The translations under genes and the position numbers were made by a program. DNA of 49,704 bases from a virus (taxonomy: Duplodnaviria > Heunggongvirae > Uroviricota > Caudoviricetes), in the IMG/VR virus record IMGVR_UViG_2703718837_000001. One strand, written 5' to 3'. The stretch's first letter is position 1. Each line of letters opens with the position of its first letter. The notes beneath the pieces were generated by a model that made no database searches, had not been told where the DNA came from, and saw only the letters and a program-made list of their open reading frames with translations. Positions 12,271 through 20,530 of the stretch are shown piece after piece.

Positions 12271-12374
12271 CCAAATTTAAATCTATGAATTACACTAAAG
12301 CAGTATCCACATCAAAAATATATGATTTTTGGGATACAAGTGATAACATTGTTGGGCGTATAGAGGAGCACAAT

Positions 12375-12677
12375 ATGACTAATTATCATTGCATGCCAGA
12401 CCTCAGCCCGGAAGAGATTCGTAAGATCTCTGAAGCAGCCGTGGCGAGTGTCGCTGCAAAAAAAATAGTCACTAACAGCAAGCATATAACTAAAAGTGCA
12501 TCTTTAGCTGGAAAAGTGATGGCTAAACAGGCAAACGTTATCAAGAAACTGTCTGGCACAGGTTCTTCTGCCATTAAAATTAATAAAGCATTTACGGACA
12601 GTGTACTTACGCAAAGCAAAAGTCGAAAATATTTTCAAGAAGCTTTCATACAAGTTCGTAAAACCATCAAGGTTTGA
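12375..12677 (+). CDS. Small protein of unknown function (cargo island)
   Basis: The ORF track gives 12285..12677, but the internal ATG at 12375 has a strong RBS (agaggag, 7 nt upstream). About 100 aa, Lys/Ser/Ala-rich, low GC. Followed by a strong terminator. Confidence 0.5.
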   Translation: MTNYHCMPDLSPEEIRKISEAAVASVAAKKIVTNSKHITKSASLAGKVMAKQANVIKKLSGTGSSAIKINKAFTDSVLTQSKSRKYFQEAFIQVRKTIKV

Positions 12678-12735: not shown

Positions 12736-13437
12736 ATGATTGAACAGCAAAAGCAATGGGTGTTTACTGAATTAGTAAAAGACCCCAATAACATCGAGCA
12801 ACTAATTTCATACACGATTTACAAAGGTTTCAAAAATGAAATAGCCGATAATGCTCGTAAGATGGGCAAGACTGAAGATGAGATCAATGAGGAGTTAGCA
12901 AAATATCACAACTATTGCATTAGTTCTCAAAAGCAATTAGATGTTTTTAGAGATAAAGCTAAAAACACTCTTGACGCTTATATTTTCACCGCTAACCATA
13001 ACATGATGAAACGGTTTAATGCGGAAATTATTAAAATAAAAAACAACTATGATAAAGAACTTGAACTAGCGCAAAAAAAGTTAAAAATTGCCGAAAAAAA
13101 AGCATTAAATAAGCTGTCCAAAGGTGCGGTTCTCTACAGCCAAAAAATTAAAGAGCCAGAGCATCTCTGGGATAAAATCCTTGATTTATTGTGGAGACTT
13201 ATGAAGTTTCTGTTCTCTGGCGTACCTAAACTTTTTGCTACTGCATTTTCTGTTGGTCTAATGTTCACAATTTATACAGCTTTCGACGAAGATGCCACGA
13301 CAGGTTTGAGAAAAGGGCTATATAAAATTGTTGATATGACTGTACCAGGAAAAGATATTCACGAAACCACAGATAATATAACCAATAGTGGCACAGAAAA
13401 AATGTCATCTTCAAATTCCCAAGCGCAGCAAGGATAG
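12736..13437 (+). CDS. Coiled-coil protein with a C-terminal membrane anchor (cargo island; unknown function)
   Basis: 233 aa. The N-terminal 150 aa are helical and Lys/Glu-rich. Hydrophobic stretch LWRLMKFLFSGVPKLFATAFSVGLMFTIYTAF (1-2 TM), then a polar tail. Low GC, weak RBS. Confidence 0.55.
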   Translation: MIEQQKQWVFTELVKDPNNIEQLISYTIYKGFKNEIADNARKMGKTEDEINEELAKYHNYCISSQKQLDVFRDKAKNTLDAYIFTANHNMMKRFNAEIIKIKNNYDKELELAQKKLKIAEKKALNKLSKGAVLYSQKIKEPEHLWDKILDLLWRLMKFLFSGVPKLFATAFSVGLMFTIYTAFDEDATTGLRKGLYKIVDMTVPGKDIHETTDNITNSGTEKMSSSNSQAQQG

Positions 13438-13443
13438 GTGATG

Positions 13444-13872
13444 TTATAAGCCGCGCAGTGATTTCGGCGCGGCAAACGTCTCAATCATCTTTTCCGCGAT
13501 TGCCGACCAGGTGTGACACTGGACCTTTTCAGCATTTTTCACGCGATCAACGCGAGCAATAACCTCATCCCAATCAATCCGCGACTTGATAACCATATGG
13601 TTCACCAAATCCAGGCGATCCGGCGGAAGGCAATCGGGCGGCGTTAATATCAACGCTCCACACATTGCCGCCTCAAGAACAGTTAATCCAAGGCTTTCGG
13701 GATGCGTAACGATAAAAACGTCACTCTTACGCAATTCAGCTGCAAATTCGGTTGCTGGTACCGGCGTCCGTCTGTATGGGGTTACCGATATATTCCCCGG
13801 ATCAATGGTAATCAATCCGTCATCGGTCAACGTTCTGGCCTCATACGGAACGGTCAGACTCTGAAGGTTCAT
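13444..13872 (-). pseudogene. 3' remnant of a GT-B (GT1/GT4-type) glycosyltransferase gene
   Basis: The 142-aa ORF contains only the C-terminal donor-binding region (VFIVTHPESLGLTVLEAAMCGALILTP). The same frame stays open upstream with no start, through the tRNA fragment to about 14072, so the gene is truncated at a recombination junction. Confidence 0.6.
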
Positions 13873-14168: not shown

Positions 14169-15104
14169 TTAGAATGGTACATTGTCATCCATCTCAAAGT
14201 CTGGGGGTGCAACAGATATTCGATGAATTTCATTTCTTTCCATATCCATCATTTGATCCTCCTGCTCCCCATCATCGTACCACGATGAAGTGTCTACCTC
14301 TAAAGCTTCAGATATGACTTCAAATGTTTCAGGAGAGTCTAAGTGAGAAGCCATGTGCAACGTGAACGGATAACTTTCTTCTAGGCTAACCCCATCATTC
14401 CTAGAACCATATTCTTGAGTAACATAGACAGTACCGGAAGCATATATATTGATGTACTCATCATCAATCGACGTGATTCCAAATTCTTCGACTTCAGTGT
14501 AATCTACATACGCATGATTCGCGATAGTCACTAGGTTTTCAGGCATAGAGCTTACCGCCGTGTCAATAACTGCATTTCTAATTTTATCTTCGAGAGTACG
14601 AATTAATTCATCTCTACAAATATGTATACCATTTAGTATTTCTGTAGCGATCTGCAGTATTTGTTTGGCCTTCAGGAAGAACTCTTGAGGTGATGGATGC
14701 ATATATTTCTCTGTTATATGCGTATATTTATTTAAGAAGAAATAAAGCTTAAGCATCTCATCTATTCTTTCATTCGACTCCTCCAGGAACTCTTCCCCCA
14801 AGTACGCATCTGAAATTTTAGCTTGAGAACAGTATTTTAAACGCTGTCTTCTAGATATTTCGTAATGTTCATGTTCTCTCTTATACCACGATGCTTGTAA
14901 TAATTTATCATTCGGAGATTTTTTCTCGATAATATGCTTTATTAGCTCGCGAATTGAAAATGCAAAGTTATGAAAACGTAATGGGTTGCCATGTGATGCA
15001 TAATTTCGCAAACAAGCTGTGAATAATTCTTTTTCAAAATCAGCTTCGAGGTGACTCATAAAATCATTCACAAAATCAAGAGATTGTAGTTTTTTAAGCT
15101 TCAT
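14169..15104 (-). CDS. Orphan 311-aa protein: helical N-domain, beta-rich middle, hyper-acidic linker and an SSB-C-terminal-tip-like end (..PPDFEMDDNVPF)
   Basis: Single long ORF in a very AT-rich segment. The C-terminus is compared from memory with the E. coli SSB tail ..EPPMDFDDDIPF. RNYASH (aa 33-38) resembles an Rx4H motif. No other family recognised. Confidence 0.7.
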   Translation of the reverse strand: MKLKKLQSLDFVNDFMSHLEADFEKELFTACLRNYASHGNPLRFHNFAFSIRELIKHIIEKKSPNDKLLQASWYKREHEHYEISRRQRLKYCSQAKISDAYLGEEFLEESNERIDEMLKLYFFLNKYTHITEKYMHPSPQEFFLKAKQILQIATEILNGIHICRDELIRTLEDKIRNAVIDTAVSSMPENLVTIANHAYVDYTEVEEFGITSIDDEYINIYASGTVYVTQEYGSRNDGVSLEESYPFTLHMASHLDSPETFEVISEALEVDTSSWYDDGEQEDQMMDMERNEIHRISVAPPDFEMDDNVPF

Positions 15105-15927
15105 CGTGTAACCTTATATTCCTGTCTCAGATTTAATATCGGATTCAACCGAATCCTCTTCTTCTAAATTTTAAAGTCGTGTAACATTACAAAATATTCA
15201 AGGTTAAATTGAACATATATCATTGTTATTTAGATGTAAGTATATCTGAGCACTCGTTACAATACCAGAATATTACCATCATTCATCATAAAGTAACTAG
15301 CGAAGGTGTGGCGGAAACGTAAGTAAGTTGTTCTCCAGGTAATTCAATACCTGTTCTTTCTAAATAGCTGCGCGGAATAGTGATCTACTTTCGTCCGCCC
15401 TTGCAGGGCGAGACATTAGGTCGGCGTCCCCTACCTGACCGTGCTGCATCAGGCTTGAGTGTGTTGCCCATATGCAACATACCACACATCAGTAAACGGC
15501 AAGTGTAGTAGTATTAGGCGCAGAAATTTAGTACAGCCCAGAATGCGCCGTAACAATCAATAAACCACTACACCCGCGCCCTGGCTGCAATTCGGTAACA
15601 GGGGATCCCCCCTAGCTTCCAGCGTGATTAGCGCCTTCAGCATGACGGAATATACCCGTAAATACGAGGAACTCTACCCAAAGGCTGTTAAGAACCGGCT
15701 GTTACGCTGAATGAAAAAGGACGTAACAGGTAAGGACGCTGACCAGAAGATGGCCCCTTCTCGTTCATCTGGTTAATCAAACCAGCGCCCTTGCCTGTTA
15801 TGCCTCCTCGTTCCCTAATACACAGACGGGGACAACCCCGTGGTGTCAGGCTTCTTAGGCCGCAACCATCATCAGATCATCGTTTGCATTTACTTTAATG
15901 GTCAGTTTGTGACTGCTCCCCGCCCTG

Positions 15928-17221
15928 TCGGGCGAGGCTTCCCACTTCTCAGGCCACTACCGTCTGTGCGACGGATTTACGCTGGCCTCCATGGGCGGAG
16001 ACGACGAGTCCCGCCGCCTGTAGTTCCAGTATTCCTTTTTGCCGGATGTTGAGTGCCGCATTGATATCGCGGTCGTGCTCTGCTCCACATTCAGGGCATC
16101 GCCAGATGCGTTTATGAAGCGGCATTTCCGGCATTTTGTAACCACAACAATAGCAGGCTTTCGAACTGGCAAACCACTGGTCGAGTTTTACTAGGTGAAC
16201 GCCTTTTTCCGCTGCCTTGTACTCCAGCTTTGTGATGAAGCTATGCCAGCCTGCATCACCTATCGCTCTTGCCAGATTGTGGTTTTTCATCATGTTGGCT
16301 GTTTTCAGCGTCTCGACAATTACCGCTTGGTTTTCGTCAACAATTGCACGAGAGAGCTTGTGTTGAAAATCAGCACGGGCATTAGCCACCCGTTCGTGTA
16401 ACGCTGCCAGACGGATTGTGGCCTTTTTACGATTCGCGCTTCCCTTTTGCTTGCGGGATAAGGCTTTTTGTTTGCGTCGCAGATTACGGCTGGCATTGAT
16501 GAGATGGCGGGGATTTGCAATTTTTACCCCATCAGACTTGATGGCAAAGTGCGATAATCCCATATCTAGGCCAGTAACTGTTGATATCAACGTGGGTTTT
16601 GCCGGAGCTTCCATGCCATCATCACAGAGAATTGAAGCATAGTATTTCCCCGTTGCTGAACAGGTGATAGTGATGCTTTTCAGCTTTCCATGAAGTTCAC
16701 GGTGAAGGCGTGCTTCTATTAGGGACAGTTTTGGGATTTTGATGGCATTATCCAGCACCTTAATCCCGACACAGTGATAGCTCGATTGTTTTCCGTGTTT
16801 ACGTTTAAACGTCGGGAACCGCGCTTTCAGCTTCGGATTAAAAAAGTTGGAAAATGCCACATCAAGATTAATTACCGCCTGTTGCAACGCAATAGAATCA
16901 TATTCTTTAAGCCATCCATACCTGCGGGATTTCTTTGCCACTGCAAGCAGCGGTTTCAGATCGTTACGCGGACTTAAATTTACTCCATGTCGCTGGTAAG
17001 CATGTTTTTTGATGTGAAGAGCTTTGTTGTACGCAAAGCGCACTGCACCGAACTGGGCATTGAGGTACTCTGCCTGTTCTGGTGTCGGGTAAATGCGTAC
17101 TTTTGTTGCTCTTAACATAGTCACCGCTCATTGATACAGGCTTTTTATGCTAACACCGTAATGATTTTTTTAAAGCCCTGTTGGCTTTTCGCCTTATATA
17201 CCCGCCCGCATTAGGCGAGGG
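15928..17221 (-). mobile_element. Minimal IS200/IS605-type (IS1341-like, tnpB-only) element bounded by similar imperfect palindromes; true ends uncertain
   Basis: ccccgccc-tgtc-gggcgagg (15928-15947, just past the tnpB stop) and acccgccc-gcatta-ggcgaggg (17200-17221, upstream of tnpB) share CCGCCC-N4-6-GGCGAGG in the same orientation. A third copy lies at 15394-15413. Confidence 0.45.
15949..17124 (-). CDS. tnpB: TnpB (IS200/IS605-family OrfB, RNA-guided RuvC nuclease), apparently intact
   Basis: 391 aa. N-terminal KVRIYPTPEQ...FGAVRFAYN (OrfB_IS605 helix), RuvC-I GLDMG, RuvC-II VIVETL, zinc ribbon CYCCG...CPECG, RuvC-III HDRDINAALNI. No adjacent tnpA. Confidence 0.9.
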   Translation of the reverse strand: MTMLRATKVRIYPTPEQAEYLNAQFGAVRFAYNKALHIKKHAYQRHGVNLSPRNDLKPLLAVAKKSRRYGWLKEYDSIALQQAVINLDVAFSNFFNPKLKARFPTFKRKHGKQSSYHCVGIKVLDNAIKIPKLSLIEARLHRELHGKLKSITITCSATGKYYASILCDDGMEAPAKPTLISTVTGLDMGLSHFAIKSDGVKIANPRHLINASRNLRRKQKALSRKQKGSANRKKATIRLAALHERVANARADFQHKLSRAIVDENQAVIVETLKTANMMKNHNLARAIGDAGWHSFITKLEYKAAEKGVHLVKLDQWFASSKACYCCGYKMPEMPLHKRIWRCPECGAEHDRDINAALNIRQKGILELQAAGLVVSAHGGQRKSVAQTVVA

Positions 17222-17302: not shown

Positions 17303-17488
17303 CAAACTGGATGGAAGCTCGTTACGCACTTCGGAGTTGCCTCTTAGGCGCATGGTCAACCTGGCAACTCGGTGGTTTGTCTGGGAGGACTAGGCCCAGC
17401 CATGCTTACCGCCGCGCCTGTCGCGGCTAACAGCTAAATCGCTCTAAAAATCACGATTCATTGATTCGATATTACACTAATAAATTTA

Positions 17489-20400
17489 TTATAGCAATAT
17501 TGCTATAACGTCATGAGCAACACCACGAGTGTCTCCCTTACAAGACACAGAACGTCTGGCAAAAAGAGGTTCCACTCTGAAGCCACTGTCCTGATAAAGT
17601 TCTCTGATGTTTGGCGCGCCACTGTTAGTAATGAGAACCTTTGCACCTCGGCGATGAGCATCCGTCAACAGAGACACCAGGCGTTTTTGCTCTTCAAACT
17701 TAAAGTCATGACCGGAATAGTTCGTGAACCCCTCTGTATTGGGGAGCGGTTCATACGGCGGATCGCAAAAGATGACATCTCCTTCTCCGGCAGCTTCAAT
17801 CACCGCTGCAAAATCACCGCATACAAACTCAGACCGCCCTTCCGCACCGAGGAAGGCTTCCATCTCCTGTAATGGAAAATGCGTAGACTTATACTTCCCA
17901 TACCCGACATTGAACTCACCGGCCTGGTTGTAGCGCGTCAATCCATTAAAACAATGTCGGTTCAGGAACAAAAACGCCGCTGCGCGATGTAAATCATCAT
18001 AGACTTGTTTGTTAAACGCATTCCGTACTGCCAGGAATCCCTCCTGGGTGTTGTAGTCCAGGAAGAAACGATGTGCCAGAGTGATAAGTGAATGCGCCTC
18101 GCGTTGCAGAGTCTTGTAAAAGTTAATCAGGTCAGCATTCACATCATTTAGCAGATTTTCCTGATATCCGGCATTCATGAAGACAGCTCCGCCACCAACG
18201 AAAGGTTCAATCAGGCGCTTCCCTTCTGGCAAATAGCGAAAGATTTGTTCCAGAACACCAAATTTTCCACCAGCCCATTTGAATATGGGCCGTTCGAATT
18301 CTGCCGCTGGTTTAACCTTTCGCTCTTTTGTTTCACTCCCTTCTTTTTGCCGACATGCAGCCTTAGTAATCCGATCGCCAATCCAGCGCATTACTGGTAT
18401 TGCCATACTATTTCCGATCGCTTTGTAACGCGGTCCGTCAGCTGCAAGCATCGCGGCCTCTTCTTCGTTTAAATCAGGATAGTTATTGCGAAGGTATGCT
18501 AGTTCATCTGAAGAAACTTTTTTACGCTTTCCCGTAGGGATCAACGTATGCCAATCAGGAAAACCTTGCAGCCTTTCACATTCGACAGGGGTAAGACGGC
18601 GCATTCTATCGTCGCCGAGCAATACAATTGGTGCTTCATGGTTACATGTCAAAGTTGGTGCCGAATTATCGGTTTTTATCTCAGCCCCTCCTTGCCCATG
18701 TGCCATGGCAATTATGTTTGTATCATCGCAAGATCTGATAGCGATGTTTGAAGTATATCTGGTAGTTTCCTTCCCCTCGCCTCTGCTCGGCGCAATATCC
18801 CGGCGCTCGCCTTCGAACTCAAAAAGTACCGTTGCGGGATCGAGGTCTGTTCGAGCACTTGCGACAACAAACACGCGTCGGCGTCGTTGTGCCACTCCGA
18901 AGTATTGGGCATCAAGGATTCTCCAGGCCACCTTTCGCTGCGGTCCATAAATACAACCACACTGCGGCCACTTTGGAGCATGGCAACCGGTTTTGCCATC
19001 CCACCGCCAGAACGCGTTACTTTTTCCTGATTCAGGTCGATCACCTGGTTCAAATGGCGCATCTTCTCCAGCCAATCCGGCAAGGAAACATCCGAAGGCG
19101 TTATCTGCCGATGACAAGACCCCTGGGACATTTTCCCAGACGATAACGGCTGGTTTGAGAAATGACTCAGCCCGTTTGTCGTCAATTGCATTTGCAAGCT
19201 CCACATACTTTAAAGTTAGCGCGCCACGCTCATCATCAAGCCCACCACGTAATCCAGCGATACTGAATGCCTGACAGTTATGGACCACCGCACCATTGAG
19301 GATATAGGAATGATCACCTTCGACTTCTATGTTGTATACAGTATCTAGGCCTACCGATTTAAACTCTTTGACTGTTCGTAAAAGCATTCCATGAGCCAAT
19401 CTTGATTTACGTGACAATTTCTGCGGGCAGATTGTTACCTGATAATAATTCCGTTGATTTACCACGCGATCCTCAATCACTTTTTTGGGCTCAACTTCAA
19501 TAAAGCTGACCGAAGAAACATAACCACAAGTCTGTGACAACTCCGCAACGCCCCAAGCAAGCGCAGGACTAACACTATTAATTCTAAATCCCGCTTTACC
19601 ACTTGGTGTCCCATCAGTATCAAGATAGCCTTGTAAAAACACATGACGCAATGGATGCGACATCACCCATGCAGGGATACGCTTAGCATGGCTTAACTCG
19701 CCAAAATGTTCATTAAGCCAATTGGCATAACACGTATCATTCAAGGTTACTTTGATGCTCCCTCGGATTTCGCTTGCCACGGAAAATATGTTTTCTGGTA
19801 TGCGGCAATGAAACTTTCTCAATTTCTGGCAATTTATGCCAAAAACAACCGCCTTCTTAGATTTACCTCTCCATCTCCTAATATATCCATCGCCAACATA
19901 AGCGCCCGCAAGATACATAGCCTGTTCTTCAGACAAGAACCGAGAACAAATATCTGGAGATGCAATATTGAAATTAGTTAGAGCACACCATTGATATCCC
20001 GGCATATCACATGCTGCTCGCCATTCCGGTTCAGACAACAACTCTCTCTTAAAATATGTGCCATTTTTCCGGGTGTTTTGGGCTTTCCACCGAACCGCCA
20101 GGAAGGGATGGTCATTGGTTGTTCTTATACCTAAAGGCTGCCCAACGGCATTAAGTAACCCCGTATTAGCTATTTTTGAACCAACTCTTTTTACTTGTTG
20201 TAACCGCCCGAGATGACTGACTACGTAATCGCCAGGGCAAACATCTTCTATTGGTTTATAACCATTTTTACAAAGAACCATATGCCCCGCGGTAAAACAT
20301 GGTGTCCCTCCCACCAGCACATCAGGGGCTTCAATTTCTCCGGCCTGGACTTTTTGGGCGAGTTTTGTCATGTCGCCAAGGTTCGCGACATGGGGCCAGC

Positions 20401-20530
20401 GGTGCGCAAGAACGGCAGAGGGAAAAGGCTCGATTTCAGCAAACCACGCCGGACGCATACCCAACGGTTCCCATGCAATGCTCGCGGCTTCAATTCCACT
20501 GCAAACAGATCCATAGCACAGCTCTCTCAC
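17489..20530 (-). CDS. dmt: Bifunctional DNA methyltransferase Dmt (N-terminal C5-cytosine MTase plus C-terminal Dam-like N6-adenine MTase) interrupted by an intein
   Basis: C5 motifs: I ([11 protein letters not shown]), IV (GGTP/CQAFS, split), VI (ENVPG), VIII (QRRRRVF), X (GNSMAIPV). Dam part: [21 protein letters not shown]. 1013 aa including the 341-aa insertion. Confidence 0.92.
19277..20299 (-). other. Intein (Hint domain plus LAGLIDADG homing endonuclease), Dmt residues 78-418
   Basis: Starts with CFTAGHMV (block A); TNDHPF (block B); [11 protein letters not shown] and [10 protein letters not shown] (two LAGLIDADG motifs); [21 protein letters not shown] followed by Cys (blocks F/G plus the +1 nucleophile). 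Excision recreates GGTPCQAFS. Confidence 0.9.

Follow-up and report, generated by a model that had tools for sequence, protein, structure and literature searches.

Why should a cargo protein of a phage-plasmid that is not itself an SSB (binding protein for single-stranded DNA) end in nearly the same peptide as one? The question is raised by an open-reading frame (ORF) on the minus strand (14169..15104, stop codon included) of IMG/VR record IMGVR_UViG_2703718837_000001, a stretch of 49,704 nucleotides that is called the window below and is a P1-like (IncY) phage-plasmid of E. coli. The ORF starts with ATG and encodes a protein of 311 amino acids (aa) that begins MKLKKL... and ends ...DTSSWYDDGEQEDQMMDMERNEIHRISVAPPDFEMDDNVPF. 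The tip of SSB recruits ExoI, RecQ, PriA, chi, RecO, and UDG, and within the SSB C-terminus (SSB-Ct) the terminal Phe and the preceding Pro are critical, the ssb-113 allele being P176S.

The 311-aa protein ends in an SSB-like tip

The C-terminal end of the protein (...APPDFEMDDNVPF in short form, ...SSWYDDGEQEDQMMDMERNEIHRISVAPPDFEMDDNVPF as read from the ORF list) was compared with that of SSB from E. coli K-12 (NC_000913.3), which ends ...APAAPSNEPPMDFDDDIPF, the last residues being ...PPMDFDDDIPF. The original prediction, made from the letters of the window, had quoted this SSB sequence and described the protein's end as a near-copy of it, and reading the ssb gene confirmed both the quoted sequence and the likeness. 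Aligned from the C-terminus, DDNVPF of the 311-aa protein and DDDIPF of SSB are identical at four of six positions, with a conservative V for I, and the two proteins have in common a Pro-Pro, an Asp-Phe, an acidic run, and the terminal hydrophobic-Pro-Phe. Of the window's 293 stop-to-stop segments with 60 aa or more, one, namely this ORF, ends in [DE][DE]xxPF. The tail that carries the tip contains 2 K/R against 11 D/E (isoelectric point, pI, 4.05), and AlphaFold2 predicts it to be disordered, with a predicted local distance difference test score (pLDDT) below 50 for residues 295-311; along the linker, where a weak helix is modeled at 280-293, pLDDT drops from 74 to <50. This is the hyper-acidic, flexible segment that had been proposed. 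Other readings of the tip fared poorly: it has no match to a beta-clamp-binding motif of the QL[SD]LF type, and a C-terminal degron or an outer-membrane-protein-type YxF signal is ill-suited to a cytoplasmic protein without a signal peptide.

The body belongs to a predicted pPIWI-associating nuclease family

The protein had been taken for an orphan, a claim that did not survive profile searches. Residues 17-152 match Pfam PF18165 (pP_pnuc_1; E=1.8e-34, 118.7 bits against a cutoff of 26.3, profile positions 2-132 of 133) and residues 163-276 match PF18166 (pP_pnuc_2; E=2.1e-33, 115.5 bits against a cutoff of 25, positions 4-122 of 122), both above their gathering scores, in order, nearly full length, and named by Pfam 'predicted pPIWI-associating nuclease'. 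The PADLOC model Aga_Nuclease (PDLC02413) matches residues 17-277 (E=2.3e-62, model positions 5-267 of 267, or 263 of the 267), and phrog_29508, a PHROG of unknown function, matches residues 1-285 (E=6.9e-92). NCBIfam has no model for the protein, and one RefSeq record already carries the pPIWI-associating nuclease name for it. By this sequence criterion, the 311-aa protein is a full-length member of the PF18165+PF18166 / PADLOC Aga_Nuclease / phrog_29508 family, which is without experimental characterization as far as the literature search could find. The family profiles end near residue 277-285 (276-277 for Pfam and PADLOC, 285 for PHROG), which makes the last ~34 residues an add-on.

An AlphaFold2 model built on a 50-sequence alignment (mean pLDDT 86) gives a confident two-domain body, with a helical domain from about aa 1 to 195 followed by a beta-rich part of ~80 aa comprising four long strands (197-263) and a short helix, in good agreement with the anticipated layout of ~190 helical and ~80 beta-rich residues lacking an OB fold. 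Since the body has no OB-fold ssDNA-binding domain, the protein is not an SSB. The second domain ends at ...DTSSWY, the point at which tail-less relatives stop. Fold matches of the body are weak, and its profile matched no solved structure when run against all PDB sequences. The protein as a whole is strongly acidic (pI 4.8). Its C-terminal domain holds 1 K/R against 18 D/E (pI 4.05), and its N-terminal domain, close to neutral overall, has a basic stretch at aa 31-100. Polar residues conserved across the family are E24, R43, R52-E53, W73, R85, R88, T128-H129, H197, G233-S234, D237, and D271, and within the C-terminal domain the conserved positions are H197, G224, G233-S234, D237, P246, and D271..W275. 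The basic stretch with R43, R52-E53, W73, R85, and R88, together with T128-H129, is a candidate active or nucleic-acid-binding site, and R43, R52, R85, H129, H197, and D237 would be compatible with catalysis or ligand binding; nuclease activity of the 311-aa protein is a prediction.

Two better-known kinds of effector were considered as identities for the body. The sequence RNYASH had been read as an Rx4H-like motif, as in the HEPN RNases (RnlA, LsoA, the C-terminal domain of AbiA, Csx1, Agap-HEPN), which carry Rx4-6H. It is conserved in the close clade only, R33 and H38 varying in distant members, which rules it out as a genuine HEPN catalytic motif; the family has no family-wide Rx4-6H, Pfam yields no HEPN match in the 311-aa protein, and the fold similarity is weak. 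Agap-HEPN itself has its catalytic R262/H267 near the C-terminus, in a different layout (PMC11162769). The best-studied model of a nuclease linked to prokaryotic Argonaute (pAgo) is bAgaN, a PD-(D/E)XK (RecB-like, D-EVK motif) DNase of long-B pAgo BPAN systems that is auto-inhibited and, once activated, kills by abortive infection (PMC10620215, PMC13535254). The 311-aa protein resembles bAgaN in its similar size and two domains; its body lacks the PD-(D/E)XK motif (D...(D/E)xK) of the bAgaN type, and the two belong to different families.

The tip is retained on a diverging tail and recurs in separate branches

An exhaustive profile search returned 772 family representatives at 50% clustering, the majority of 270-290 aa and without a tail; a further profile search for homologs recovered largely these proteins again and contributed few others. 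Relatives of 277 aa from Pseudomonas, Shewanella, Vreelandella, Aliivibrio, Providencia, and marine Gammaproteobacteria (44-58% identity) stop exactly at ...DTSSWYE, and relatives of 305-316 aa from E. coli, Salmonella, Klebsiella, Pantoea, Yersinia, Enterobacter, Ewingella, and Edwardsiella (55-100% identity) continue past ...DTSSWY with an acidic extension. A tree restricted to the body places these tailed proteins in a single clade, which points to one gain of the tail in that lineage. Compared with the rest of the family, with which it shares the two-domain body and the conserved R43, R52-E53, W73, R85, T128-H129, G233-S234, and D237, the 311-aa protein thus stands out by a 34-aa acidic, SSB-tipped tail beyond the family models, and by the lack of a nearby Argonaute in the loci examined.

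When 16 lineages of this Enterobacterales clade were aligned from the C-terminus, the last residue (position 0) was Phe in 16/16, position -1 was Pro in 13/16, and positions -4 and -5 were each Asp or Glu in 15/16, positions -2, -3, and those further upstream being variable. The string [DE][DE]xxPF-COOH is found in 13/16 lineages, compared with 0.04% of composition-preserving shuffles of the same tails, so that the tip had indeed been kept among close homologs, as the original prediction had asked to be checked, most of the wider family being tail-less. The acidic linker upstream, of 30-40 aa, is variable, nearly wholly diverged, and unalignable among the 16 lineages; between the window and Klebsiella, the tail is ~69% identical and the whole protein 89%, and the tip is kept despite the faster evolution of the tail. 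Short linear docking motifs usually show themselves in this way, as a fixed terminal peptide on a fast-changing disordered region, and these alignments indicate that the tip is under selection.

Similar tips are also found far from this clade. Distant tailed members occur in at least six separate places of an approximate neighbor-joining tree, with ends such as ...SSNNFDDDVPF (P0176), ...EFLDNDIPF (P0128), ...FDNDDLDF (P0203), ...PADNEPF (P0204), ...FLKESPF (P0188), ...KEADF (P0217), and ...PDVVDF (P0192). Outside the clade, 10/23 tails end in Phe, compared with 5% Phe among tail residues (binomial 6e-8, uncorrected for relatedness). In Yersinia enterocolitica (P0128/P0276), the tail is 70 aa long, weakly acidic, and without sequence relationship to the query tail, yet it ends DNDIPF; the same SSB-type tip on a different linker in an Enterobacterales host argues for recognition of that particular tip. 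Agreement between the family tip and the host's own SSB tip is likewise supportive in Enterobacterales, including this independent Yersinia branch. Unrelated branches of the family have gained similar tips independently, which makes it probable that the tip is functional, as a peptide for docking or as bait. Retention in 13/16 lineages despite the diverged linker, against 0.04% of shuffles, together with recurrence in separate branches, is more than chance would give, and a link to the SSB interactome is plausible and directly testable. An appendage of the opposite kind, a strongly basic N-terminal extension of ~40 aa rich in Arg/Lys (e.g., MSIQRKRKIARRRKIEGKIRR...), was seen in family representatives P0135, P0139, P0144, and P0162, one distant subclade that has it in place of an acidic C-terminal tail.

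The gene is solitary and recurs in defense hotspots

The family name rests on being encoded next to a prokaryotic Argonaute, which the 311-aa protein is not. Large ORFs of the window, 12 loci with precomputed Pfam annotation, and 63 large neighbors of 32 genome loci were examined, and no PIWI-domain neighbor was found in these ~45 loci, which include members at 25-31% identity, nor among the large ORFs of the window. The 63 large neighbors yielded no PIWI domain and no recurrent partner among the top 25 families listed, the commonest being integrase. Neither a hidden Argonaute nor a conserved partner gene was found in the loci examined, and the absence of any conserved neighbor, along with a guanine-plus-cytosine (GC) content of 32-41% against about 48-54% in the flanks, agrees with the earlier description of the gene as AT-rich and monocistronic.

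Its locations point to defense. Tailed homologs in Klebsiella (89%), Enterobacter (60%), and another enterobacterium (55%) sit at the edge of a P2/186-like prophage, where they immediately follow int in the cI-int arm, and the int-att interval of P2 is a minor defense hotspot (PMC13586616). Tail-less Shewanella genes lie among genes for CBASS, Schlafen, a KAP NTPase, AAA_15/21, and SieB; the Pseudomonas gene lies at a prophage end; the Yersinia gene lies on a conjugative element, adjoining AbiH, an HNH protein, and an nSTAND NTPase; the gene for P0204 is flanked by an integrase on one side and by Gabija, BrxR, and Wadjet on the other; and that for P0192 lies on a mobilizable element (relaxase) with Mrr and nSTAND. 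Defense islands and prophage defense hotspots are thus a repeated location, and the gene travels on P1-like plasmids, P2-like prophages, and integrative and conjugative elements (ICEs) across genera. The branch is a solitary gene that moves with mobile elements and settles in defense hotspots, and by this association we call its product a defense-type effector.

The gene itself is present in 18/5,426 complete E. coli genomes, 17 of them with it on plasmids, and in ~24 PLSDB plasmids at roughly 99% identity; it was absent from 50,697 deposited phage genomes searched by megablast and tblastn. On one E. coli plasmid in PLSDB (NZ_CP101271.1), it is split by an IS3-family transposase, 84% being covered in two places, which constitutes a natural knockout allele. 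P2-like prophages with homologs have several cargo slots filled at once: in Enterobacter ludwigii (locus L008, 7977-8755), two small unannotated ORFs of 97 and 109 aa lie between the tailed homolog and ogr, and a GmrSD-type restriction enzyme occupies positions 1-552 of locus L012, on the same prophage arm as a family homolog.

A possible docking role for the tip and its alternatives

What might such a tip do on such a protein? We tentatively favor, at somewhat less than an even chance, that the tip is a docking peptide for proteins that read the SSB tip and that it recruits or switches on a solitary defense-type effector. The protein is mobile-element cargo from the pPIWI-associating predicted nuclease family, in a branch that would work without Argonaute, and would act as a single-gene defense-type effector, probably by abortive infection. 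The Enterobacterales clade has extended this body by ~34 residues that are acidic and disordered, and the final six, (D/E)(D/E)xxPF-COOH, imitate the SSB tip. The terminal Phe and carboxylate, flanked by acidic residues, would enter the sites, each a hydrophobic pocket with a basic rim, that read the SSB tip on proteins of DNA replication, repair, and recombination, whether of host or phage. Candidate host partners are ExoI, RecQ, PriA, and chi, and candidate phage partners are Red-beta/RecT annealases and polymerases that read SSB-like tails. Docking could place the effector where ssDNA is being actively metabolized, or the effector could be switched on when an SSB-tip reader of the invader appears. 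The hexapeptide DDDIPF of SSB-Ct is a known hub for partner recruitment (PMC5872125), and Red-beta and RecT recognize the terminal 7-9 residues of the host's SSB (bioRxiv 10.1101/2020.04.14.041095). The second outcome leads to a bolder proposal, which we consider unlikely as it stands, that one family of solitary immune effectors on mobile elements has repeatedly evolved a copy of the host SSB tip as molecular bait; annealases of the Red-beta/RecT type, polymerases, or helicase loaders of an invading phage or plasmid would bind the fake tip, and the effector would be released or recruited.

In its tail, the protein resembles bacterial SSB-Ct (...MDFDDDIPF), both having a disordered acidic tail that ends (D/E)(D/E)x-hydrophobic-Pro-Phe-COOH, a likeness of peptides and not of family membership; the carrier here is not an OB-fold ssDNA-binding protein, and position -2 is usually T/A/S in relatives rather than I/L. 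The T7 gp4 helicase-primase and the T7 gp2.5 SSB have similar acidic, Phe-ended tails that dock on T7 DNA polymerase, and gp4 is the nearest precedent for a non-SSB enzyme with an SSB-like tail that uses the docking site of SSB. The T7 tails work within one phage replisome, whereas here a predicted defense effector on mobile elements has copied the tip of the host. The original prediction knew of no described family with this layout; for the body this was wrong, and for the combination of body and SSB tip it held, in that full-text searches, which left most subscription journals outside their coverage, returned no report of a non-SSB protein, and in particular of one in a defense context, with an SSB-Ct-like tip.

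Several observations weigh against the docking model. In the clade, position -2 is usually a small or polar residue (T/A/S) in place of the Ile of SSB, and S or N frequently replaces the Asp of SSB at position -3, so that affinity for SSB-tip pockets may be below that of SSB itself, and the effector would have to compete with thousands of SSB tails per cell, SSB being present at >2,000 tetramers (bioRxiv 664532). The tail is dispensable for core activity, since most family members have none. Paenibacillus tails end ...LYPEF or ...TQYF, unlike a DDDLPF-type tip and unsupportive or uninformative when set beside the host SSB tip, and one close variant has no terminal Phe; several other family tails are acidic with no terminal aromatic residue, and an acidic tail with a terminal aromatic may be the broader feature, of which the strict SSB-type tip is a special case. 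The AlphaFold2 monomer model carries no partner information, and a location in the former C1-repressed ban operon of P1 also fits expression in lytic growth rather than in lysogeny.

In a different model, on balance rather unlikely, the tail is a self-inhibiting pseudo-substrate. Acidic and aromatic-ended, it would mimic single-stranded nucleic acid and fold onto the protein's own basic, conserved N-terminal Arg/His surface, holding the effector off until a trigger or the real substrate displaced it, and its likeness to SSB would be convergent chemistry with no SSB partner. The acidic tails of SSB, T7 gp2.5, and T4 gp32 bind their own DNA-binding clefts, an intramolecular contact works at low affinity without competition from cellular SSB, and the N-terminal basic stretch at aa 31-100 contains the conserved R43, R52, R85, and R88, H129 of the same domain being conserved as well. 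Some distant acidic tails have the aromatic end with no Pro (...KEADF, ...DVVDF, ...PEEF, ...ISEF, ...DEEY), and several more are acidic without an aromatic end. However, AlphaFold2 leaves the tail undocked (pLDDT <50, 295-311), a tail does not go with a more basic body (mean net charge -20 in tailed versus -18 in tail-less proteins, which is weak evidence), most relatives have no tail to be inhibited by, and the conserved Pro at -1, with DNDIPF on an unrelated, at most weakly acidic linker in Yersinia, points to a specific SSB-type tip and not to a generic polyanion. The two models could be combined.

That the protein is instead a decoy or hijacker of the SSB interactome, soaking up or redirecting ExoI, RecQ, PriA, chi, and UDG so as to shield or favor P1 DNA, the body serving not as a nuclease but as an acidic scaffold or a DNA mimic, seems improbable. 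It would suit the acidity of the whole protein (pI 4.8; 4.05 for the C-terminal domain), which recalls DNA-mimic anti-restriction proteins, and the position of the gene downstream of, and on the same strand as, the C1-repressed Pban, where it replaces ban, the replicative helicase gene of P1, and where lytic expression might occur; nuclease activity of the body is, moreover, only predicted. Yet homologs lie in chromosomal defense islands and in the lysogenic cI-int arm of P2-like prophages and not in early or leading regions, PADLOC models the family as an Argonaute-associated effector, absence from the deposited phage genomes is unexpected for a general phage counter-defense gene, and titrating the partners of >2,000 SSB tetramers per cell needs very high expression (bioRxiv 664532). 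Among the functions suggested in the original prediction, the defense-island and lysogenically expressed prophage contexts accordingly favor a defense effector tethered to SSB clients, while a decoy or a replication takeover is less likely because of SSB abundance. Least probable is that the protein is an Argonaute accessory acting in trans with a pAgo encoded elsewhere in the host, with a tail that has nothing to do with SSB. A pAgo link for some members is implied by what the family is called and by its PADLOC model, whereas the loci and window ORFs examined have no PIWI-domain neighbor, and spread on P1-like plasmids, P2-like prophages, and ICEs across genera fits an autonomous module.

The gene lies in a P1 hotspot between gene 5 and dmt

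In P1, the interval from baseplate gene 5 to dmt contains dbn, ban, trnI, tciCBA, upl, plp, trnT, and trnA, together with a dicF-like region and Pban, the promoter controlled by C1, a content that bears out the earlier placement of the gene in the ban/tRNA/tci hotspot. In the window, the same interval holds two AT-rich unknown genes, a dbn remnant, the gene of interest, and TnpB (Table 1), and ban (replicative helicase), trnI, tciABC, upl, plp, trnT, and trnA are missing, so that the phage-plasmid appears to be without its own DnaB-like helicase at this locus. A truncated tRNA had been placed beside the gene, and neither ARAGORN nor Rfam detected a tRNA or tRNA remnant near it; the TnpB element reported on its other side is present.

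Table 1 Features of the gene and of the surrounding gene 5-dmt interval in the window
Feature	Position	Strand	Basis or remark
AT-rich cargo gene, no Pfam match	12285-12677	+	33-40% GC, just after baseplate gene 5
AT-rich cargo gene, 233 aa, no Pfam match	12736-13437	+	33-40% GC; hydrophobic C-terminal segment
3' remnant of dbn (glycosyltransferase)	13444-13872	-	only 3' part of P1 dbn kept
Whole gene: pP_pnuc-family protein with SSB-tip tail	14169..15104	-	ORF list; Pfam, PADLOC, and PHROG matches
SSB-Ct-like tip, aa 306-311, DDNVPF-COOH	14172..14189	-	SSB comparison; positional conservation; convergent tips
Acidic, variable, disordered linker, aa 278-305: DGEQEDQMMDMERNEIHRISVAPPDFEM	14190..14273	-	outside Pfam/PADLOC profiles; pLDDT; divergence
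C-terminal beta-rich domain, aa 196-277 (pP_pnuc_2)	14274..14519	-	
N-terminal helical domain, aa 1-195 (pP_pnuc_1 and connecting helices)	14520..15104	-	
AT-rich upstream region, Shine-Dalgarno-like AAGG 8 nt before ATG	15105..15380	-	sequence; GC 32-34%
TnpB (OrfB_IS605, Cas12f-like TNB, and helix-turn-helix)	15949-17124	-	between dmt/Pban and gene; flanks to ~15380 and ~17380
Pban promoter and C1 operator (Op72)	17469..17514	-	97% identity to annotated P1 region; 3' end of dmt

The AT-rich region directly upstream of the gene is probably, judging from its sequence, a putative promoter region of its own, the consensus promoter match there being weak and overlapping the start codon. The gene is on the same strand as the retained Pban and C1 operator and hence within the former ban operon, and Pban is a possible additional, C1-repressed source of transcription that would read through TnpB into the gene. 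No TnpA adjoins the TnpB gene. The GC-rich stretch at 15380-15948, 3' of TnpB, probably holds its guide (omega/re) RNA; an Rfam 'tmRNA_permuted' match at 15855-15946 is sub-threshold (29.9 bits against a gathering score of 47). The two AT-rich genes after gene 5 may be further defense-type cargo in the hotspot, and the longer of them has faint PADLOC matches to PDC-M64B/C and LeoBC (E about 0.004-0.009).

At the far end of the interval, the P1 dmt homolog (17489-20530, minus strand) encodes 1013 aa, compared with 754 aa for its counterparts in P1 and a near-identical plasmid. The additional residues match Hint_2, LAGLIDADG_3, and Intein_splicing and interrupt the C5-methyltransferase motif (GGTPC before and QAFSIAG after the insert). 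The insert has the look of an intein that carries a homing endonuclease and is lodged in the bifunctional Dam/Dcm-like methyltransferase.

Implications for mobile-element immunity

Bacterial genome maintenance relies on the SSB tip as its central docking peptide, and host and phage proteins alike depend on it. If the copy described here works, immunity carried by mobile elements taps the SSB hub, either finding replicating or recombining invader DNA or sensing invader proteins that read the hub. The family offers a natural series of tail-less relatives, tailed relatives, and relatives with the same tip on an unrelated linker, which makes the question directly testable. Were the docking model true, it would give the first mechanistic handle on the uncharacterized pPIWI-associating nuclease family and would show that this family works mostly without Argonaute. 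Were the bait proposal also true, it would amount to a new principle of immune sensing, mimicry of a hub peptide instead of recognition of a pathogen molecule, and the readers of the SSB tip would be a general weak point of invaders.

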